Source of the DNA: Escherichia coli
Lineage (GTDB): Bacteria > Pseudomonadota > Gammaproteobacteria > Enterobacterales > Enterobacteriaceae
Direction: 5' to 3' (one strand)
Length of the DNA stretch: 64,000 bases
Assembly: GCA_902500205.1 (NCBI GenBank)
Contig: GCA_902500205.1_4868.1
Position numbers and translations under genes: made by a program. The notes under the pieces were generated by a model. That model ran no database searches, was not told where the DNA came from, and saw only the letters and a list, made by a program, of their open reading frames with translations. Each line of letters opens with the position of its first letter. The stretch's first letter is position 1. This document shows positions 43 through 63,078 of the stretch, piece after piece.

Positions 43-498
43 GTGATGCACCTCACTGAACTCGACACCGGTGAAATTGTAACAGAAACCGCAGTTGCCA
101 CACTTGACGATTATACTTTGGCGGACTTCTGCGAACACGCTGAGGAGTTAGTTAAATCGTTACGCCCTGAACAGGAAGAGGGGAAGTATTTCGGTTATGC
201 ATTTGTGGCTGCACCGAACGAGCGGTACGACTTCAAAGCGGAAGAAGACCAGCTCATTGAAAACTTCATGCATTCTGGACTACTTGATACGTCGTTACAT
301 CTGTCGGAAGAGCAACAGTTCGTTAGTCGTGCAGAAATGGCAAAGTTACTTGTTGGTTATACTCGGAAGTTTGACGTGACCGTTGAACATGTCAAAGAAG
401 TACCAGAGATTGTGAGCAAGAAAGACGAGGTGGTACTTCCGGTTGACGAGGTCGTCGGTAAAGTAGCGACTGCGATAGGGGCAACAGGGGATTACTGA
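43..498 (+). CDS. hypothetical protein (acidic); 5' end may lie upstream of the window
   Basis: ORF from GTG 43/ATG 46; the frame is open back to position 1 so the true start may precede the window; stop overlaps next start (ATGA at 498). Confidence 0.45.
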   Translation: MMHLTELDTGEIVTETAVATLDDYTLADFCEHAEELVKSLRPEQEEGKYFGYAFVAAPNERYDFKAEEDQLIENFMHSGLLDTSLHLSEEQQFVSRAEMAKLLVGYTRKFDVTVEHVKEVPEIVSKKDEVVLPVDEVVGKVATAIGATGDY

Positions 499-707
499 TG
501 AATCTACGTTGGCCGATCGTGGCTGCTGTGTTGTTTTGTATCTATATCGCCATCAGCACCAGTACCCGCACTGCAGAACGTCGCGAGACCGCAACCAGTA
601 CGTTCAGAATGTGTATTGATCGAGTAGACCCGAACAATAGCACTTATCCTGACGCTGTGAACGCGTGTCGCAAAGCGGTTGCTGAGATATTGAAAGAGGA
701 AAAATAA
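498..707 (+). CDS. small protein with hydrophobic N-terminal segment (putative membrane protein)
   Basis: 69-aa ORF, start overlaps upstream stop; N-terminal stretch PIVAAVLFCIYIAIS is TM-like. Confidence 0.4.
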   Translation: MNLRWPIVAAVLFCIYIAISTSTRTAERRETATSTFRMCIDRVDPNNSTYPDAVNACRKAVAEILKEEK

Positions 708-7000: not shown

Positions 7001-7117
7001 TATAAAGAACACGGCCCAGGACATGATATTTATCGTGACTTGGCAATACCCGACCACACAACAGCTTCACTCGATATAACGTTTACTATCCCAGACGATC
7101 CGCTCGAAACTAATTAA
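4100..7117 (+). CDS. large hypothetical protein (1005 aa), Trp/Tyr/Gly-rich; possibly virion-associated or carbohydrate-active
   Basis: Uninterrupted 3-kb ORF tightly coupled to upstream gene; no motif I can name with confidence. Confidence 0.65.
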   Translation: MRKFKISAKRHALNYAMSLAYGHQDFVRRNTGLTNDAHKDHYLINPEGVLSNNRHFIADSMAVYQPNGDATTEGQSLLIIGYCHMYIATKNRMWLDAAIRAWEAYATYYYAGQAIPESPQRWICNWLVNGKEPVLADYPVHPTEPTHGGYKCVPVTFTNGRCQIPQGAPFFGEYLNNFFSAHRGHPTWGAVNADVQKIKESEDGLIDWSKVPDYLITNPEKPYDVKAWVDWNRMLNDPTGYTPIWGGSTSKGPRYEPDWFVVWTGEKVQDGEVIESGLPDAQKGTVQLKDTSINGVYLINYASQVPVEHGGYLFGRNEPWHNRPVHTPLKGSVNQMGNAADAEVWFIDACYLLWRITGEPRYKAALDSVFYTAHEYTYIDAKDKFFRRSKLAETPFTDGISYDYKYPSTVEVAYSRDENGDIVFRSEKAVQNFMEQQAVRFRINSQSKLRVTYGGVCDNGDALACKVMVDINPVKADTEEVNWYGCTLPGSTSMEVKQHDIGLGHLARMTNPVNGEDYIIADARACSDYGGCTWQEKFESNIYDGRSGTIVEALFPNDDAGFIIGFWLTDAGVAPPQSIVYRADADFNFRFEDTNKWRWWWMLPATNGEWKQVIIRPEDATLSGYQPDHDTDVETKPSAPNYTTIDQVTILPDSAVENAHFSWYCVNDVPPLFNADDGWTLTFRIAIRGGSAFTGKVGDCTIKDYRLDSLAYCPGTIPFSNIYSEGTYQLGAWHGMPYPGYQYPFMYTIHTDDRYKVWLLNQIRFMHDSQTNYQAQLGELGPGCAAYIWNRWDNYTYGPVDTWTTFHWGDGHPWAGYQPRAYNAAARCWYELVVRGKEVPPELVEYVENWAKWLVGFLDRFDNHTPNEFPTAPNKPVWVENDFTAHMCALWIAGSAYAAMAGCTVEGLSRIMDMGMKEMGDNFTVTDIPGKAINGAWSPWANPTTDNGQAFGFYTGEAMRAIGLYLLYKEHGPGHDIYRDLAIPDHTTASLDITFTIPDDPLETN

Positions 7118-7122
7118 GTGTA

Positions 7123-7160
7123 TACCAGCCACCCCGAAGGATGGCTGGTACGCTTTATTT
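7123..7160 (+). terminator. intrinsic terminator
   Basis: TACCAGCCACCC-CGAA-GGATGGCTGGTA hairpin followed by CGCTTTATTTTATTT. Confidence 0.6.
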
Positions 7161-7162
7161 TA

Positions 7163-7190
7163 TTTCAGATAGATGTTATCTCAGTGAACC
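7163..7190 (+). promoter_or_regulatory. conserved intergenic motif, copy C (TTTCAGATAGATGTTATCTCAGTGAACC)
   Basis: One of five related ~30-nt motifs, all on the plus strand just upstream of plus-strand genes; contains AGATA...TATCT dyad. Confidence 0.35.
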
Positions 7191-7244
7191 TCTGAAATTT
7201 ACGTTTCAATCAGAGCTTATGTCATGTATTAAGGAGCAATTAAA

Positions 7245-29611: not shown

Positions 29612-29654
29612 TTTAACGAGGAACTTGACGGGTTTAAAGCCTGAAGATAAACCA

Positions 29655-29690
29655 TGCCCTCTTCCCCACGGGGAAGAGGCTTTCTTTTTA
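29655..29690 (+). terminator. intrinsic terminator
   Basis: CCTCTTCCCC..GGGGAAGAGG hairpin followed by CTTTCTTTTT. Confidence 0.7.
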
Positions 29691-29716
29691 TGACCCTATC
29701 AACTCAGGAGGTTATC

Positions 29717-30307
29717 GTGGTCGATCGTTGGAGTAAAGAGGGCATTATTCGTGCCAAAGTAAACATCGAAGCCGGTTACGTTAATAACCCGAAAGATTTG
29801 GGTAAAGCAACGAACCGTGGTGTCACCGAACTCACGGCGCGTGAATATGGCTATAAAGGGGATATGCGTGACCTGAGCTTAGAAATCGCGTTAGACATTT
29901 ACAACAAGCTCTGGTGGCAGCGAATGCGTTTAGACCAGATTATGAAAATGAATGTCCTGCTAGCTGACCGGATGTTTGACTTCGGCATTAACGCAGGACG
30001 CGGTAACTGTATCAAGTCCCTGCAACGTATTCTGAACGTATTAAACCGTCAGGGTAAACTATACGATGATATCGATGCCGATGGTGGTATCGGGCCACGT
30101 ACGTTAACAGCGTTAGAAGGCTTCATCAAAGCCCGTGGGGAAGAGGGCCTGAATCGACTGATGTTCGCTTTAACCTGTCATCAGGTTGCGTATTACACGG
30201 AAATCAGTGAAGGGCGTGAGGATAACGAAGAGTTTACTTACGGCTGGTATGGCCGCGTCTATCAGGAAATGCCAGACTACGTGGCTAAGTTGGGGATGTG
30301 CAAATGA
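29717..30307 (+). CDS. putative endolysin, glycoside hydrolase family 108-like N-terminus
   Basis: GTG 29717 five nt after AGGAGG; N-terminal EAGYVNNPKDLGKATNRGVTE resembles the GH108 signature (EGGYVNDP.D.GG.T..GIT) as I recall it; position at head of a lysis-type cassette. Confidence 0.55.
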   Translation: MVDRWSKEGIIRAKVNIEAGYVNNPKDLGKATNRGVTELTAREYGYKGDMRDLSLEIALDIYNKLWWQRMRLDQIMKMNVLLADRMFDFGINAGRGNCIKSLQRILNVLNRQGKLYDDIDADGGIGPRTLTALEGFIKARGEEGLNRLMFALTCHQVAYYTEISEGREDNEEFTYGWYGRVYQEMPDYVAKLGMCK

Positions 30308-30595: not shown

Positions 30596-31237
30596 ATGGA
30601 AGCACTTAAGTATAAGTTGTTAGAGAAGCCGTGGTTTATCCTCACGGATGATTTCCATTTCGAGTTTACGTTGCGCAGCCTCTATCGTGAACAGACCGGA
30701 ATGGATGCGATGGTAGCATTAGCAGGTGTGCATCCGGATACCCCGTTATGGGTAACGGTACCGAGAGGATTTGTGACGGACCTGGCAAGCATTCCAGAAG
30801 CGTTACGTCCTATCCTGCATCCGGATGGGCCTTGGGCTGCTGCCGCTTGTGTGCATGATTTGTTTTACCAGAAACGTTCATCGGTAGGCTTTTACCCTGA
30901 CACCGTTGAAGGTAATCTATCTCGTGCTTGCGACAAAACATTCGCTGACCTGATGTTCTTACGCATCATGGAGGCATTAGGCGTTGACACCTTTATTCGT
31001 AAGTCCTTCTACCGTGCCGTTCACGAGTTTGGTTGGCCGTCCTATGTAGACGATAACTCTAAGGTGGTTTATAGCCGGCCGGTAGAAAAGACGTTGTCCT
31101 ATAATCGCAACTACCTGTTCTTTAGAACGTCGCGTACGTTAGCGATTCCTGAACACGAACGTGTTGACATTACTAATGGGCAACCGGTAAACGTGCAGTA
31201 TTTGAATATCAAACGTGCGTTCCTGACTACCCCTTAA
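30596..31237 (+). CDS. DUF1353-like protein
   Basis: Motif VPRGFVTDLASIP matches the G.(V)TDGASIP signature of DUF1353 as I remember it. Confidence 0.45.
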   Translation: MEALKYKLLEKPWFILTDDFHFEFTLRSLYREQTGMDAMVALAGVHPDTPLWVTVPRGFVTDLASIPEALRPILHPDGPWAAAACVHDLFYQKRSSVGFYPDTVEGNLSRACDKTFADLMFLRIMEALGVDTFIRKSFYRAVHEFGWPSYVDDNSKVVYSRPVEKTLSYNRNYLFFRTSRTLAIPEHERVDITNGQPVNVQYLNIKRAFLTTP

Positions 31238-31246
31238 GGAGAGAAA

Positions 31247-31762
31247 ATGTTTCATCCGAATCCTGCCAACTTCGCGTTAAAAGAGTTGATGCCGCAGGAG
31301 TACATCGCGAAATACGGTGAAGGTGCTATTCGTTTCCTTAATCCGTTACTGTTAATCTCGCTCCAACAGATTCGTAATCGTTTTGGGCGGATGGTGATTT
31401 TAACCAGTTCCCAGCAACAGCGTAGTCTGCGTACCCTGCAGTTCTTTATTAATCAAGAGAAACCAAAGGGTGGAGATTGGCAAACTCGTGCAAACAAACT
31501 GTACGCCGAATCAGGCAGTATGCATAAATTCGGTAATGCGTTTGATGCAACAATGCTTGATACTCCGTTGCAGAAAGTACACGACTATATTGCCGCGAAC
31601 CCTAACGAGTTTCCGTTTATTCACTTTATCGAGTGCGATATTACCTGGCTACATGTTGACGTACGCAACCAGCCTGATATCACCTTCTGGTCACCGACAC
31701 GTGGTACCGTTAAAGTGGTTAAGCAACAACCCATCGATTGGAGCAAGCTAGTTAAAATCTAA
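31247..31762 (+). CDS. putative M15-family peptidoglycan peptidase-like protein
   Basis: SMHKFGNAFD fits the SxHxxGxAxD zinc-site motif of peptidase M15 (VanY / L-Ala-D-Glu peptidase type); RBS AAGGAGAGAAA. Confidence 0.4.
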   Translation: MFHPNPANFALKELMPQEYIAKYGEGAIRFLNPLLLISLQQIRNRFGRMVILTSSQQQRSLRTLQFFINQEKPKGGDWQTRANKLYAESGSMHKFGNAFDATMLDTPLQKVHDYIAANPNEFPFIHFIECDITWLHVDVRNQPDITFWSPTRGTVKVVKQQPIDWSKLVKI

Positions 31763-31842: not shown

Positions 31843-31888
31843 CCCTTACCCACTCCCGTAAGGGGAGTGGGTAAGCATTATTTATTTT
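31843..31888. terminator. bidirectional intrinsic terminator
   Basis: CTTACCCACTCCC-GTAA-GGGGAGTGGGTAAG flanked by A-run upstream and T-run downstream; sits between converging plus and minus genes. Confidence 0.7.
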
Positions 31889-32369
31889 CTTCTAACGGAA
31901 CAATCGTAATCGGAGTAGGAACTTCACCGATAAACCCGCTGCTGCAGCGAAAGAATGTCATCCCTTTACCTTCGCCGGTATACGGGTTCACATCCGAAAA
32001 AGAGTAAGTGGGGCTATCGTTTACGGTTTTATTAATACGGTAATAACGCTCACCTGTGGTGGTGTTAACATTCCCGTCGATTTTGCCAATTGTATCTTTA
32101 AACATCATCGGTGACTCTAGTTTGCCACCGTCCCACGTTGCTACCCAGTTTGCACCCACATCCATTACTGTTACTGACCGCGGCATCATCTGTAGATTGT
32201 CCAGAACCGGACGGTAGTCTACAAACTTCTCCTGTGTCCCTGTGCATGTATAAATCACCAAGTCGTGATTCTTTACCGGTGTGCTGCTAAATTGTCCGAT
32301 GTTGCTTGGTGACTGGACGCAACCGGTCAACAGGCTTATAAACGCGAATACGATAAATAGACGTTTCAT
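31878..32369 (-). CDS. predicted lipoprotein (163 aa)
   Basis: N-terminus MKRLFIVFAFISLLTGCVQ: positively charged start, hydrophobic core and L-T-G-C lipobox; isolated minus-strand gene between plus-strand units. Confidence 0.6.
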   Translation of the reverse strand: MKRLFIVFAFISLLTGCVQSPSNIGQFSSTPVKNHDLVIYTCTGTQEKFVDYRPVLDNLQMMPRSVTVMDVGANWVATWDGGKLESPMMFKDTIGKIDGNVNTTTGERYYRINKTVNDSPTYSFSDVNPYTGEGKGMTFFRCSSGFIGEVPTPITIVPLEENK

Positions 32370-54337: not shown

Positions 54338-54547
54338 TTACGCGTTTACGTAATAGATGGCGTTGCCGAACATTTTGTTGTTGCCGCCACAAGCGGTAAC
54401 TTTAAATGCTACGCCGCCTTCAGCTTCGGCTTTCTTAGCCAGCGCTTCGGTAACTTCGGTAACGGTGCTCAGTCCAGAAACCTGAACGGTGCCTGCTTCT
54501 ACCAGACCAGAAACGTCGCTGCCTGCGGTGATTTCACGAATGCTCAT
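54338..54547 (-). CDS. DUF1471 (YhcN/BhsA family)-like small protein lacking a signal peptide
   Basis: C-terminal SGLSTVTEVTEALAKKAEAEGGVAFKVTACGGNNKMFGNAIYYV matches the DUF1471 domain pattern of enterobacterial stress proteins; RBS GGAGA. Confidence 0.5.
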   Translation of the reverse strand: MSIREITAGSDVSGLVEAGTVQVSGLSTVTEVTEALAKKAEAEGGVAFKVTACGGNNKMFGNAIYYVNA

Positions 54548-58759: not shown

Positions 58760-59286
58760 TGAAACTCGAAGGCTACGTTGTTACTGATAAACCTTTTGCT
58801 GAAGCCAACCTGTCGCGTTCACAGGTTGTTTATAAAGACATCGATGTGCCTGCCGAAATCGTTAAAGCGAATCCCAGCTGGCTAATCAACCACGTTTCTT
58901 TGGAAATCACCAATCCGTTTATCAACGATCCAACCGACCCATTTGTCGACATGGGTAATTTCCGCGATATTCTTTCCCCGCATCAATACCAGACAGTGGC
59001 ACAGAAGAAAGGGAACTTGCTCACCGAAACGAATGAGTGGGAGCGTATCCAAGAGCGTCATCCTGAAAAGGGTTTAATGGAAATTTATCACCAACACCCT
59101 AAAGAGTTTGACAAATTACCCCTGTGGGCATCGGTGGCGTATAACTGCAGTGGGATATATGACCATCTGTTGCTGAGCGGATACGATGGCGCAATACACG
59201 CAGCCGAAGGCCCGCACACGCCGGTGACTGCTTATCACACATTTCACCCAGCGCGCATCACTTTCATCGAAACGTTGAGTGTGTAG
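58756..59286 (+). CDS. hypothetical protein (176 aa)
   Basis: ATG after AAAGGAG, overlaps upstream stop. Confidence 0.55.
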   Translation: MMKLEGYVVTDKPFAEANLSRSQVVYKDIDVPAEIVKANPSWLINHVSLEITNPFINDPTDPFVDMGNFRDILSPHQYQTVAQKKGNLLTETNEWERIQERHPEKGLMEIYHQHPKEFDKLPLWASVAYNCSGIYDHLLLSGYDGAIHAAEGPHTPVTAYHTFHPARITFIETLSV

Positions 59287-59291
59287 TTTAT

Positions 59292-59334
59292 CTCCAGTAA
59301 CCACGAGGGTTACTGGAGTCCTCTTATTTTTTAC
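59292..59334 (+). terminator. intrinsic terminator
   Basis: 11-bp stem CTCCAGTAACC / GGTTACTGGAG with loop ACGAG followed by TCCTCTTATTTTTT. Confidence 0.75.
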
Positions 59335-59365
59335 ACTTAACTCAAATTAATTTGAGGTGTGGTAT

Positions 59366-59953
59366 ATGACAGAACGTATTTTACGACTGCAAGAGAACAG
59401 GTTAGAAGACCTGCACGTAATGCGTAGTCGTGGCTTGTTTCCGGTGGGGCTTGATGTGAGTGGATTATTAACTGCCGCAGAGCACGGGGACAAGGTCATT
59501 ACAATGCATTCACGTGGGAACGAAGTGGTCTCTGCGATTTTCATCGATAAGGTTATTCCGGACTCGGAAAGTGGTAAGGTGGCGGGACACATCATTTACG
59601 AATACTTTCGCAGCATTCTATACGAGGAAAAGATAAATGTCAAAACTTTTATGGAGTACGCTAAGCGAAATAACTACATCGATGCGCGACTGATGGTCAC
59701 GGAAGGCACCCCAACTATAAACGGTAAAGTCCACCATCGTTTACTTGGAGCACAGTTGCCGAGACTAGGCGAGATACCAACGACGATAGAGCTGCACCAA
59801 AAAACAGATTGGCGACACAAAATCGAAGTGCTTCACAAGCTTTACGATTTATCGATCGTTCAAATCAAACTGGTGGACTTTACGCCTGCAAATATGCAAA
59901 TCGCTAAGCGCGCGTTGGGTTTTCGTATTCTTAACACAACCTTCACATTGTAA
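59366..59953 (+). CDS. hypothetical protein (195 aa)
   Basis: ATG 59366 after GAGGTG that lies inside a conserved CTCAAA..TTTGAG hairpin. Confidence 0.5.
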   Translation: MTERILRLQENRLEDLHVMRSRGLFPVGLDVSGLLTAAEHGDKVITMHSRGNEVVSAIFIDKVIPDSESGKVAGHIIYEYFRSILYEEKINVKTFMEYAKRNNYIDARLMVTEGTPTINGKVHHRLLGAQLPRLGEIPTTIELHQKTDWRHKIEVLHKLYDLSIVQIKLVDFTPANMQIAKRALGFRILNTTFTL

Positions 59954-59956
59954 AAT

Positions 59957-59990
59957 ATCTCAGATATATATTACCTAGGTGAGAGTTAAG
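59957..59990 (+). promoter_or_regulatory. conserved intergenic motif, copy B (ATCTCAGATATATATTACCTAGGTGAGAGTTAAG)
   Basis: Near-identical to copy A; followed by GAGTTAAgagaTTAACTC palindrome and then a terminator-like hairpin. Confidence 0.4.
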
Positions 59991-60002
59991 AGATTAACTC
60001 AA

Positions 60003-60033
60003 TGGCTACCTTCGGGTAGCCTATTCTTTTTTA
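60003..60033 (+). terminator. intrinsic terminator-like hairpin (UUCG tetraloop) downstream of motif B
   Basis: GGCTACC-TTCG-GGTAGCC followed by TATTCTTTTTT. Confidence 0.65.
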
Positions 60034-60057
60034 AACCAATCGACTATAGAGTAAAAC

Positions 60058-60459
60058 ATGACTATCAAGAAGTTCTTACAAACAGTAGTAGTTCTGGCCG
60101 CATGTGGCATCGCAGCAACTTATGCTTTCGATAAGCCAGACGTGACTGAATACGTATCTGCGGATTCCGATTACGGTATTGCACCGAATGAAAAACCGGA
60201 ACTGATGCGTGAGGTCGAACAGTTACAAATCTACAAACTGACGGATGGTAAGAACTGCACAGGGCTGGTTATCGCTGATAAGAAACTGAAAATGTATCAG
60301 CGATTAACCGACATATCGTGCGATCAACCAAAAGTCACTTCGGTCAGCGTATCGCCGTTGGAATTACCAGATCTGGTTGCTGTGAGTTTTTATCACAACG
60401 ATGTGCTCGTTGGTCGCATCACCCTCATTCGTGGAGATATCAAAAATGAAATGCAATAA
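60058..60459 (+). CDS. secreted protein, probable lipoprotein (133 aa)
   Basis: N-terminus MTIKKFLQTVVVLAACGIAATYA: hydrophobic core with L-A-A-C lipobox-like sequence. Confidence 0.55.
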   Translation: MTIKKFLQTVVVLAACGIAATYAFDKPDVTEYVSADSDYGIAPNEKPELMREVEQLQIYKLTDGKNCTGLVIADKKLKMYQRLTDISCDQPKVTSVSVSPLELPDLVAVSFYHNDVLVGRITLIRGDIKNEMQ

Positions 60460-60937
60460 CGTTAATCACCACTTGGCCAAAGTGGTGCTTTTTACTGTGC
60501 TGTTGATGGCACTTGTTGTTGGGCTACGGATTTCTAAGGCGCACGCTGACGAATTCAGCGGGTTCCAGGGCAGTATTAACGGCAGCATTCCAGCATATAC
60601 CCGCACCATCAATCTTAATGATAAGCCGTTCTGGTGCAATGCGCGTAAGCTGCTTAAGAAACAGTGTCGTGTAGTTGACATATCCTTCAACGGACGTGTC
60701 GCTATCGTACACCGTCCGGGCGATAAAGATTGCCCAGGTGGTTGGTGGGGTGCAGTCGACCGTCACAACGGTGACGCGTTATGGCTTATCCCTAATCGTG
60801 ATGAACTATCAGTGGAGAAAATTTGCAGCAAAGATTTCAGGGCCGGTTTTGTACAGCGACCTGATACCAAAACTCTGGCCTCCATCGCTATGTACTACGG
60901 TATGGAAACCATCAAAACAATCGACTATTCAGAATAA
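60446..60937 (+). CDS. secreted Cys-containing protein (163 aa)
   Basis: ATG 60446 after GGAGA; signal-peptide-like MKCNNVNHHLAKVVLFTVLLMALVVGLRISKAHA; six Cys in mature part. Confidence 0.5.
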   Translation: MKCNNVNHHLAKVVLFTVLLMALVVGLRISKAHADEFSGFQGSINGSIPAYTRTINLNDKPFWCNARKLLKKQCRVVDISFNGRVAIVHRPGDKDCPGGWWGAVDRHNGDALWLIPNRDELSVEKICSKDFRAGFVQRPDTKTLASIAMYYGMETIKTIDYSE

Positions 60938-60959
60938 CTCAAAAAATTGAGGTGCTATT

Positions 60960-61370
60960 ATGAAACATTTTTTATTACCAGTTTTACTTGCTACTCTGGC
61001 CATTAGCTTCTTCGCTCGTGCTGGAAGTATCGAGTTACCAAAAGTTGTTAACGATCACGAATACGGCGGAGAGTTCTGGTGCCAGAACTCTGACGTACAA
61101 GGCGGTAGCTGCCAGATCGTTGCGATGTCCGATAACAACCGTTACCTGTTAGTGAAAACGATGGGCGGTGTCGCATGTGGCGACCCTGAATACGGGGTTA
61201 TTAACATGGCAACCGGGCAAGCCGAATCCATGAACTATAATGATAACCAAGCCTGCAGTGGTGAAGCCGTTGCTGAGTTTACACGCGACCCAGGCGACAA
61301 TGCCCTGACGGTTATCATGTACGACCCTACGATTAAGAAAAACGTAGGCATCAATAAACTCGACTTTTAA
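60960..61370 (+). CDS. secreted small protein (136 aa)
   Basis: Signal-peptide-like MKHFLLPVLLATLAISFFARA; RBS GAGGTG within conserved hairpin; Cys-containing mature region. Confidence 0.55.
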   Translation: MKHFLLPVLLATLAISFFARAGSIELPKVVNDHEYGGEFWCQNSDVQGGSCQIVAMSDNNRYLLVKTMGGVACGDPEYGVINMATGQAESMNYNDNQACSGEAVAEFTRDPGDNALTVIMYDPTIKKNVGINKLDF

Positions 61371-61383
61371 GTAAGGAAACAAC

Positions 61384-61767
61384 ATGCGTGGATTTATGGG
61401 TATTATCGCGGCGGTGTTCTTGACCGCTTCCGCTTCAGCTACAACCAGCGTAGAAGATTTACTGCCGGGCACACCGTATCAGTACAACCCGCCTTCATTC
61501 GAAGTCTGTACTGGCGACGATGGCAGATGTGAAGAAGTCAGCCGTCACGACGAGTATATCCTGGTCCACGCAAAGGGCGAGGAAACTTGTCCGGCTGGTT
61601 ACTACTTCTTGTTGAACTCAAAGGCACAAGAGATTGTGCCGGTAGAGACAATAACGTGCGACCCGACGCTTCGCGCGTCGCTCGCTTACAATACGAAAAC
61701 CAAACAGCGCCTCCTGGTTATTGAACAACAAGGCGAAGTGCGTGGTTCAATAGCGCTCGACCAGTAA
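61384..61767 (+). CDS. secreted small protein (127 aa)
   Basis: Signal-peptide-like MRGFMGIIAAVFLTASASA; Cys spacing loosely parallel to the preceding gene. Confidence 0.55.
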   Translation: MRGFMGIIAAVFLTASASATTSVEDLLPGTPYQYNPPSFEVCTGDDGRCEEVSRHDEYILVHAKGEETCPAGYYFLLNSKAQEIVPVETITCDPTLRASLAYNTKTKQRLLVIEQQGEVRGSIALDQ

Positions 61768-61775
61768 CCGAAAAG

Positions 61776-61804
61776 TTTTCAGACAGATGTTATAACGTGA
61801 GATG
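61776..61804 (+). promoter_or_regulatory. conserved intergenic motif, copy E (TTTTCAGACAGATGTTATAACGTGAGATG)
   Basis: Related to copies C and D; followed by hairpin GTGAGATG-ACGACC-CATCTCAC. Confidence 0.35.
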
Positions 61805-61813
61805 ACGACCCAT

Positions 61814-61867
61814 CTCACTTTGGCCCTGCGGTGATTTCCCCAACACTTAGCCGCAGGGTCCTTTTTA
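61814..61867 (+). terminator. intrinsic terminator-like hairpin with long loop
   Basis: CCCTGCGG ... CCGCAGGG followed by TCCTTTTT. Confidence 0.5.
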
Positions 61868-61896
61868 ATCGACTATTACCCGTAAGGATTAAGCAA

Positions 61897-62397
61897 ATGA
61901 ACATGAACATTCTCGACGATACCCGTTCTTCTTTCTTTACTCAGATGAACGTTAACCCTGAACGTACCCGTGCTATTCTTTCTACTGGTTGGAAGTTGAA
62001 GTTGTTAGGCGAGTTAACCCTCAATCGCACCGACTGGCCAGCAGAAGCAACCGTACTGATTAACAGCATTCACAGCGAGTGGCTAGATGCTGCGTTGAAT
62101 GCCCCACAACTACGTCCGTACTATCGGATGCTTCACGCGGGATATGAAGTATACCGCAAAGGTTGGTACGATGCAGCCACATATTGCAACATCCCTGGAG
62201 GTCGTGAAGACAACACCGTCGACCACGTATTAGTGAATAACTTCTGGGGCGACCAAATTGAGGTCTTACAACTCTCTACCGGTGACCGTATTCCGGCCTG
62301 TGAGTTATTCGAAACTAACGCACAAATGTACGAACCGTATGCAATGATTCGTGGCCATAAGGTCCCAATCATTTCCCTTATGCATATGGGGCTGTAA
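61897..62397 (+). CDS. hypothetical protein (166 aa)
   Basis: ATG 61897 (MNMNILDD..) 8 nt after AAGGA; the longer ORF-track start lies inside the terminator region. Confidence 0.5.
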   Translation: MNMNILDDTRSSFFTQMNVNPERTRAILSTGWKLKLLGELTLNRTDWPAEATVLINSIHSEWLDAALNAPQLRPYYRMLHAGYEVYRKGWYDAATYCNIPGGREDNTVDHVLVNNFWGDQIEVLQLSTGDRIPACELFETNAQMYEPYAMIRGHKVPIISLMHMGL

Positions 62398-62404
62398 ATA
62401 CGAG

Positions 62405-62434
62405 AGGTAGCCTACGGGCTACCTTCTTTTTTTG
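62405..62434 (+). terminator. intrinsic terminator
   Basis: GGTAGCC-TACG-GGCTACC followed by TTCTTTTTTTG. Confidence 0.75.
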
Positions 62435-62451
62435 TTGAAGAAGGATTAAAC

Positions 62452-63078
62452 ATGAACGAGATTACCCTGATTCGTTTCATCGACGACATGGTGACGTGTC
62501 AGAAAGCGAATCGTCGGGATACCAAACTGCGTATCAATCTGATGGAAGAAGAGGTAGAAGGGTTTCTGGAATACCCGCGATTGGTGAAGTGGTTTAAAGA
62601 AGCACTGCCGCGTAGCTGGGAACAGCTAGAAGCGTGGTTTGCTCTACCTATTGCAGAACGTAACCCTAACAATACGATCTTTACCGGAACCACTGCATTA
62701 GATTTGGCTGGTTCGGTGGAGCAACCTAAACGTTTGGTTTTCTTCTACGTCAATGGCGATTCAATAATGGCTGATACAGTTAACTGGATTTCTGATGAGT
62801 TGACTGTAAACACCACTTTGGTCGGTAGCGCTGCTGATGCCTGGGTTGTTGGTCAGCACCAATCGCAACCGTACGAAGAAATCAAAACCGGTTATTTAAT
62901 CCCGATATATCTCGACGGCGTGGCACCCGGTCGTAGTGCCGAACTGTTCAAATTCCTGCTTACTGAAACGTTAAAGGTTGTCGATTCTGATGCCGGGCGG
63001 GCGTGGTATGAATTAACCAAAGAGCGCACCGATAGTTTTTGGGAATCACTCGGACACCGTAAGTTTATTCCGCAATAA
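62452..63078 (+). CDS. hypothetical protein (208 aa)
   Basis: ATG after GAAGGATTAAAC. Confidence 0.55.
   Translation: MNEITLIRFIDDMVTCQKANRRDTKLRINLMEEEVEGFLEYPRLVKWFKEALPRSWEQLEAWFALPIAERNPNNTIFTGTTALDLAGSVEQPKRLVFFYVNGDSIMADTVNWISDELTVNTTLVGSAADAWVVGQHQSQPYEEIKTGYLIPIYLDGVAPGRSAELFKFLLTETLKVVDSDAGRAWYELTKERTDSFWESLGHRKFIPQ

Follow-up and report, generated by a model that had tools for sequence, protein, structure and literature searches.

Llp of phage T5, a small, exported, lipid-anchored and disulfide-containing protein, binds an outer-membrane receptor and prevents superinfection (PMC9586334). Two reports describe Spackle (gp61.3) of phage T4 as a small signal-peptide protein that resides in the infected cell's periplasm, where it binds stoichiometrically, without enzymatic action, and inhibits the gp5 tail lysozyme of an incoming phage (PMC7677548, PMC7650644). 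YafY is one of two Escherichia coli lipoproteins that activate Cpx/degP when overproduced; its function is otherwise unknown, and deletion of yafY gave no phenotype in the assays of the same study (PMC6538781). Here we report on four consecutive genes, g1 to g4, at positions 60058 to 61767 of a 64,000-nucleotide stretch of DNA (the window; contig GCA_902500205.1_4868.1 of the E. coli assembly GCA_902500205.1). They correspond to gp180-gp183 of Salmonella phage SPN3US and appear to form an array of exported paralogues that is remotely related to the domain shared by YafY and YfjS.

The likeness of gp180-gp183 to Spackle and to Llp is one of logic, not of ancestry. Spackle is helical, whereas gp180-gp183 are predicted to be all-beta; it has no sequence similarity to them and is a single gene, not a four-paralogue array. 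gp180 could act like Llp and the lambdoid Cor protein if its lipobox is used, but homology is lacking and the lipobox is not conserved among gp180 orthologues. Ivy, PliC and MliC are likewise small, disulfide-bonded periplasmic binders, and a candidate Ivy-like protein occupies the gp181 slot in some related phages and adjoins a gp182 homologue in enterobacterial islands. With YfjS and YafY the block has in common that these are small exported envelope proteins encoded on mobile elements, and gp180 has the same two-cysteine pattern and, in this phage, a lipobox; gp181-gp183 differ in carrying signal peptidase I signals and a predicted second disulfide, and most gp180 orthologues lack the lipobox. 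Nucleus-forming jumbo phages have been studied almost wholly for cytoplasmic events, and their effects on the host envelope are largely unexplored; the block would represent a conserved multi-gene investment in the periplasm.

The gp180-gp183 genes and their products

The window comes from an SPN3US-like jumbo phage. Its region 59000-63000 has 96-97% DNA identity to SPN3US and to close relatives of that phage, namely JN03, the SPFM series, SEGD1, Escherichia phage EC001 and Proteus phage 7; these are jumbo phages of about 240 kb in the genus Seoulvirus. The four genes are SPN3US_0180-0183, annotated at the same coordinates and in every case as "hypothetical". The preliminary description had listed four open reading frames (ORFs) of 127-163 amino acids, which were recovered exactly as listed (Table 1). 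It had also named mis-assigned start sites as a possible flaw; the starts hold, with Shine-Dalgarno sequences 7-13 nt upstream of g2 (GGAG), g3 (GAGGTG) and g4 (AAGGA) and with agreement among orthologues and annotations. An alternative, longer g2 ORF from 60401 has no Shine-Dalgarno sequence, is used by neither annotations nor orthologues, and would still translate the hydrophobic segment.

In all four proteins the N-terminus consists of a basic n-region followed by 10-14 uncharged hydrophobic residues and a small-x-small site, in line with the signal-peptide-like N-termini noted earlier. A heuristic filter (basic n-region, uncharged h-region of 7-15 residues, small residues at -3/-1) passed 6 of 73 non-overlapping ORFs of the window, three of them within the block; g2 also passes when its correct start is used. 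Because so few ORFs of the window pass, four signal peptides in a row are not attributable to chance. All 51 full-length relatives examined, from phages and bacteria, pass as well, and the signal-peptide character is maintained across orthologues of merely 30-70% identity (38-75% in the signal regions, 38-73% in the mature regions). The strongest single item for export is a signal-peptide swap: a copy of g2 on a Salmonella chromosome (P0026) has the same mature start DEFSGFQGSI behind a signal peptide of unrelated sequence, MSHKLEGIASAAALSLYLLTPAHA, and DNA homology to the phage starts at position 60538 of the window, in the c-region of the signal peptide (KAHA), a few codons before the predicted cleavage site AHA/DEF (a slash marks cleavage here and below). 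Sec-dependent export of gp180-gp183 to the periplasm is strongly supported by the conserved signal-peptide character, by this swap and by invariant cysteine pairs.

The cysteines reported at first sight are indeed a conserved feature, with four in mature gp181-gp183 and two in gp180 (g1 67 and 88; g2 64, 74, 96 and 127; g3 41, 51, 73 and 99; g4 42, 49, 69 and 92). The spacing of the four is conserved among mature g2, g3 and g4. In a 24-sequence alignment (A2) the only invariant residues are C20, C30, C78 and one glycine, and C52 is present in at least 90% of the sequences. The first two cysteines are missing together, and the last two retained, in the g1 family and in YfjS/YafY; this joint loss implies disulfides C1-C2 and C3-C4, as would be expected in the oxidising periplasm.

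Family alignments built from related phages and database matches were compared by hhalign, which gave 99.4% for g2-g3, 99.0% for g3-g4 and 97.2% for g2-g4. For g1-g4, with 15 g1 orthologues, the value was 93.4% (E 2.6e-7, 76 columns), with both mature cysteines aligned. BLASTP relates g2 to g3 at E 4e-8, and the PHROG profiles of g2, g3 and g4 cross-match. All four genes can thus be regarded as paralogues, g1 being the most divergent. The preliminary description had suggested that the last two may be distant paralogues, which is borne out for that pair and was too modest for the block. No further paralogue was found elsewhere in the window.

An AlphaFold2 model of mature g3 (predicted local distance difference test, pLDDT, 92.5; predicted template modelling score, pTM, 0.86) is all-beta, with seven main strands and short N-terminal strands; the model of mature g1 has a pLDDT of 80. 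Structure comparison, which had been proposed as a check, was run on these two models. The g1 model retrieved from BFVD its own orthologues first and then two g3-family entries (template modelling, TM, score 0.59; probability 0.99), the same two that head the search with the g3 model. Both predicted folds are all-beta and contain no coiled coil.

The lipobox-like LAAC site that had been pointed out at the start of the first protein is present, fits the lipobox consensus and recurs in SPN3US-type sequences and in protein P0046; in most orthologues its cysteine is missing or non-canonical. A conserved lipobox would read [LVI][ASTVI][GAS]C where the h-region ends, in the orthologues too. The cysteine is absent from gp180 orthologues of STsAS, pEa_SNUABM_29 and Kwan-like phages and from P0048 and P0049. 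It is preceded by V, F or T, which the consensus does not permit, in Asesino, Caitlin, Huxley-like phages, several IMG/VR relatives (L022 and L026 among them) and P0047. Outside the SPN3US clade a canonical site was seen in one IMG/VR relative (L027, AVSC). Orthologues of gp180 widely keep a signal peptidase I site 7-10 residues beyond the lipobox (TYA/F, SFA/E, VSA/P), and a site of the type TYA/F(D/E)KP is widely retained. The chances that gp180 is lipid-modified in this phage are about even, and its ancestor looks to have been a soluble periplasmic protein. In gp180 LAAC is followed by GI; glycine at +2 would mean default outer-membrane sorting if the protein is lipidated. gp181-gp183 have no lipobox.

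Relatives in jumbo phages and bacterial islands

The family is rare and has no characterised member among the sequences retrieved. Pfam, NCBIfam and PADLOC hold no family for gp180-gp183 or for their neighbours gp179, gp184 and gp185, and the PHROGs matched by the four proteins (9424, 17072, 8968 and 5248) have no assigned function. There was no match to PADLOC models of known anti-phage defence or superinfection-exclusion proteins, and none of the four window proteins matched Ivy, PliC or MliC. A sequence search of PDB gave no match of note, returning lectin fragments and a 47-residue stretch of ThreeFoil (E 0.003). An exhaustive HMMER search over 1.84 billion cluster representatives yielded 37 proteins at E<=1e-3, nearly all of 100-165 amino acids with a signal peptide and four cysteines; giant multi-Ig/FN3 proteins from this search (P0074, P0078 and P0084) were dismissed as generic beta-repeat noise. 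By tblastn the genes were found in 64-66 of 50,697 phage records, all of them enterobacterial jumbo phages, of Salmonella, Escherichia, Proteus, Erwinia and, weakly, Cronobacter (CR5). The literature searched does not mention gp180-gp183, and a comparative review of jumbo phages does not discuss exported proteins. The proteins are not named in the text or supplements of PMC5105663 or in PMC7411985, as far as these sources were covered, the full mass-spectrometry table lying outside this check.

Asesino, Caitlin, Kwan, STsAS, pEa_SNUABM_29 and 14 loci from IMG/VR all have the genes in the order g1-g3-g4, always upstream of gp184, gp185 and the SbcC-like gp186, which is essential (PMC5105663). 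This core is syntenic across Seoulvirus, Erskinevirus, Machinavirus and Wellingtonvirus at 30-70% identity, and g2 is confined to the Seoulvirus and Erskinevirus lineages. Kwan-like phages encode an extra, fifth exported protein of 135 amino acids with four cysteines. In uncultured phages of about 220 kb (L022-L025) a homologue of YfjT/YkfB is added before g1 (E 1e-13), and the g2 slot holds a 160-residue exported protein similar to the N-terminal half of a secreted protein of 295-312 amino acids from bacterial islands (E 2e-29). Three members of the latter family gave sub-threshold matches to Ivy (E 0.0014-0.035; 14.7-19.2 bits against a cut-off of 21) that fall on the same part of the profile. 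The Ivy likeness of this neighbour in arrays and islands is a lead, not a finding.

A profile search also detected chromosomal homologues of g3 in Salmonella and E. coli at 44-46% identity, one of which is labelled 'Secreted protein' in its source. Of 5,426 complete E. coli genomes 78 contain them, as do 7 of 72,556 plasmids and 4 of 185,579 species-representative genomes. Every bacterial homologue examined lies within an integrative element of the CP4-57/CP4-6 type, in a slot that follows genes for a YfjP-like GTPase and a WYL regulator and precedes DUF932, antirestriction, RadC/JAB, DUF987 and CbeA/CbtA genes; the islands often hold a single copy of the family. In K-12 the slot contains ypjK-yfjS-yfjT (CP4-57) and yafY-ykfB (CP4-6). 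Defence genes stand near the homologues in an island of E. coli O157:H7 (L012, 1-5667) and in CP4-57 of K-12 (L015); they encode proteins of ABC-three-component systems, a TrlF-family AAA ATPase, AbpAB and RnlAB, and fit a conflict-related neighbourhood.

In an island of Salmonella Infantis (L013) the slot contains a YfjS/YafY-family lipoprotein gene (PF20494), g2', g3' and a 62-residue ORF (7039-7227), and one collinear segment of 878 bp has 72.6% DNA identity to the window. This collinear match argues that the g2-g3-g4 cassette has been exchanged between SPN3US-like jumbo phages and Salmonella islands of the CP4-57 type. The short ORF is chimeric: it starts with a gp183-like fragment (CPAGYYFILDS...), its N-terminal half being 60% identical to g4 residues 49-93, and the rest is a YfjT-like tail. 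It is best read as a deletion scar, so that the island would once have held gp181-gp182-gp183-like genes followed by yfjT. The YfjS-like lipoprotein gene holds the position of g1, directly before g2', g3' and g4'.

Comparison of the g4 family with YfjS/YafY by hhalign gave 90.2% (E 1.5e-6), and 93-94% in further runs, at about 19-21% identity; the two C-terminal cysteines and the G(Y)YY and 'G..G..L' strands are aligned. Pfam PF20494 matched none of the window proteins at E up to 10, and one relative reached E 0.12. Because no window protein reaches this model, gp183 is filed as a remote homologue of the YfjS/YafY domain and not as a member of PF20494. YfjS and YafY have a lipobox followed by aspartate at +2 (LSAC followed by DD, LIAC followed by DD), a combination that is absent from gp180, which has glycine at +2, and from gp181-gp183. 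Two more direct assignments were tried and rejected. gp180 is not linked to YfjS by BLASTP, which found nothing, or by hhalign (0.6-0.7%), and its connection runs solely through gp183 (93.4%); gp181 had been considered as YfjT from the position after yfjS in L013, and BLASTP and hhalign link YfjT/YkfB to none of the four families. The literature searched describes neither the YfjS/YafY link nor cassette exchange with CP4-57-type islands, and we know of no prior account of either. Together they would connect a phage gene array, the K-12 orphans yfjS and yafY (yfjT and ykfB by synteny) and the exported-protein slot of CP4-57-type islands beside defence genes.

Possible functions

The reading that we favour, with a probability of about 0.4, is that gp180-gp183 are non-enzymatic periplasmic binders that protect or modify the envelope of the infected cell. 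They would be made in the cytoplasm of that cell and exported by Sec through a cleavable signal peptide, and each, once in the periplasm, would form a small all-beta domain (about 105-130 residues), held by the disulfides C1-C2 and C3-C4 in gp181-gp183 and by C3-C4 only in gp180, which may in this phage be lipid-anchored through Cys16. The YfjS/YafY lipoprotein domain of E. coli CP4-57/CP4-6 would fall into the same rare superfamily as this domain. Each paralogue may bind a component of the envelope or an incoming one, such as a peptidoglycan hydrolase, a receptor or an injection apparatus, and the infected cell would thereby be shielded from competitors during the long infection cycle. Binders are likelier than enzymes because only the cysteines and one glycine are invariant, and no polar residue other than cysteine is conserved. 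From the fixed order of gp180, gp182 and gp183, which are kept together throughout the related jumbo phages, we infer that they act together. Protection or modification of the envelope is what the small exported phage proteins Spackle and Llp do, and the island slot stands in elements rich in defence genes and also holds an Ivy-like protein. An envelope-directed accessory role fits the block, since it is not a lysis cassette, carries no virion annotation and has bacterial relatives in an accessory slot of mobile islands.

Several points weigh against such binders. The signal peptides were judged by a crude, home-made filter. No characterised homologue ties the family to exclusion, receptor modification, periplasmic inhibition or any target. 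The likeness to Ivy stays below the threshold and is a matter of neighbouring genes at other loci rather than of gp180-gp183 themselves, and an arms-race signature was not seen, the block having 43-72% identity to pEa_SNUABM_29 as compared with 37-70% for the flanking genes. The sole functional datum for the superfamily, the activation of Cpx/degP by overproduced YafY, favours stress signalling over shielding (PMC6538781).

The last point leads to the main rival, which we consider unlikely: the proteins may be envelope-stress modulators that act on inner-membrane or periplasmic sensors such as Cpx and reprogramme the host's envelope response, so that, for instance, DegP and chaperones are induced or surface appendages repressed. 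It would draw on the homology of gp183 and, via gp183, of gp180 to the YfjS/YafY domain, on the effect of YafY on Cpx and on the lipobox of gp180 in this phage. That homology is remote, however, at about 19-21% identity and with PF20494 unreached; the YafY effect is one of overproduction, and the yafY deletion was phenotype-free (PMC6538781). Furthermore, gp181-gp183 are predicted to be soluble, and gp180 has glycine at +2 and not the aspartate of inner-membrane retention.

The genes may instead be passengers ('morons') from enterobacterial islands that have no role in the lytic cycle and benefit a carrier or pseudolysogenic host, or are neutral. The cassette common to phage and Salmonella island, the rarity and narrow taxonomic range of the family, and the hairpins that flank the block in the manner of an insertion module are in keeping with this account. 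We hold it to be improbable in view of the synteny of g1-g3-g4 across four genera at 30-70% identity, implying that selection has long retained the core in vertical descent, and of the intact state of all ORFs with conserved cysteines and signal peptides. If the genes are neutral passengers, the finding is ordinary. If they are exclusion factors or inhibitors of envelope attack, they would constitute a new family of small periplasmic binders, would account for some of the genes carried by very common enterobacterial islands, and would bear on the design of phage cocktails, SPN3US-like phages being candidates for biocontrol of Salmonella and Erwinia.

In a more far-reaching version of the binder reading, itself doubtful, the block would be one example of a mobile 'periplasmic shield' module, traded between CP4-57-type islands and nucleus-forming jumbo phages, that neutralises incoming peptidoglycan hydrolases or injection machinery of competing phages, or other envelope attack. 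Besides YfjS/YafY-like paralogues with two or four cysteines it would include YfjT-like and Ivy-like binders, the set perhaps assembling into a split propeller, and if true it would provide a function for the long-uncharacterised K-12 genes yfjS, yafY, yfjT and ykfB. The propeller can also be considered on its own: each paralogue would contribute two blades, and gp180, gp182 and gp183 (with or without gp181) would assemble into one heteromeric periplasmic propeller of six or eight blades. Each of the 14 related loci has three distinct paralogues in the same order, and their conservation rates resemble those of their neighbours; single copies are common in bacterial islands, however, where a monomer or homo-oligomer must function, and we give this assembly little credence.

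A role as lysis accessories, either a spanin-like pair or periplasmic regulators of lysis timing of the antiholin type, is very improbable and largely refuted by gene anatomy: the 14-nt overlap of gp180 (lipobox) and gp181 (long N-terminal hydrophobic segment) is superficially spanin-like and phiKZ may have lysis inhibition (PMC12894885), but the predicted folds are all-beta with no coiled coil, the lipoprotein candidate comes before its partner whereas the o-spanin follows the i-spanin, genes for a holin or endolysin are not adjacent (a GH108 muramidase lies about 30 kb away), phiKZ-type holins place their soluble domain in the cytoplasm and the phiKZ lysis cassette is differently composed (PMC12894885), and homologues occupy non-lytic islands. 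Two-component spanins were tried as a specific candidate and rejected; a coiled-coil i-spanin followed by an o-spanin, beside lysis genes, was looked for in the block and is absent.

Transcription signals, coordinates and other features

Genes g1 and g2 overlap by 14 nt, and spacers of 22 nt and 13 nt separate g2 from g3 and g3 from g4. The hairpin called by the terminator scan upstream of g1 can be taken to close the preceding transcription unit. Two hairpins lie downstream of g4. One of them, at 61797..61821 in the g4-gp184 spacer, was not called by the scan, its T-run being too short; it may act in RNA processing or as a weak terminator. The next terminator called is past gp184, at 62404. 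Given the terminator before g1, the tight spacing and the position of this next terminator, the block looks like one transcription unit, possibly extending through gp184. The search for a promoter motif upstream of g1 was negative: the 16-mer has a single occurrence in the window, and two relatives share no more of it than a short AATCGAC-AT-GAG block.

Table 1. Coordinates of the features discussed (positions in the window unless another sequence is named)
Feature	Position	Strand	Remarks
Intrinsic-terminator-like hairpin	60004..60031	+	GGCTACC-TTCG-GGTAGCC, then T-run; terminator scan; 27 nt before g1
g1 = SPN3US gp180	60058..60459	+	ORF of 133 amino acids; predicted to be exported; most divergent paralogue
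Signal peptide of g1 (predicted)	60058..60126	+	Residues 1-23, MTIKKFLQTVVVLAACGIAATYA/FD; signal peptidase I site TYA/FD
Lipobox LAAC of g1	60094-60105	+	Residues 13-16, inside signal peptide; Cys16
g2 = gp181	60446..60937	+	ORF of 163 amino acids
Signal peptide of g2 (predicted)	60446-60547	+	Residues 1-34, ...SKAHA/DEF
g3 = gp182	60960..61370	+	ORF of 136 amino acids
Signal peptide of g3 (predicted)	60960-61022	+	Residues 1-21, ...FARA/GS
g4 = gp183	61384..61767	+	ORF of 127 amino acids; CPAGYY motif
Signal peptide of g4 (predicted)	61384-61440	+	About residues 1-19, ...SASA/TT
Hairpin	61797..61821	+	GTGAGATG-ACGACC-CATCTCAC, then TTT; g4-gp184 spacer; read from sequence
Two extra genes for predicted exported proteins	L022 2187-2645 and 3082-3561		IMG/VR contig of about 225 kb; also in L024 and L025

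Among the records of close relatives, those of the SPFM series (LR535901-LR535913) gave many short matches (40 pieces, about 60% coverage) and truncated or frameshifted predictions (P0006-P0011, P0036-P0045). This fragmentation looks like a problem of sequence quality in the assemblies rather than biology.

Three further ORFs of the window were recorded. One of 163 amino acids on the minus strand (31878-32369) has a textbook lipoprotein signal, MKRLFIVFAFISLLTG/CVQS, and no Pfam family. It is located just downstream of a muramidase with GH108 and PG_binding_3 domains (29654-30307), a DUF1353 gene (30596-31237) and a weak Peptidase_M15_3 match (31247-31762), and may be in or beside a phage lysis or cell-wall module. 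A 69-residue protein encoded at 54338-54547 (minus strand) is YdgH/BhsA/McbA-like (DUF1471; Pfam E 3e-11) and has no signal peptide. The bacterial proteins known from this family act in stress and reside in the periplasm, which makes a cytoplasmic copy in a phage unexpected. The third, a 69-residue ORF at 498-707 (plus strand), has one N-terminal hydrophobic segment (MNLRWPIVAAVLFCIYIAIS...) and could encode a small membrane protein.

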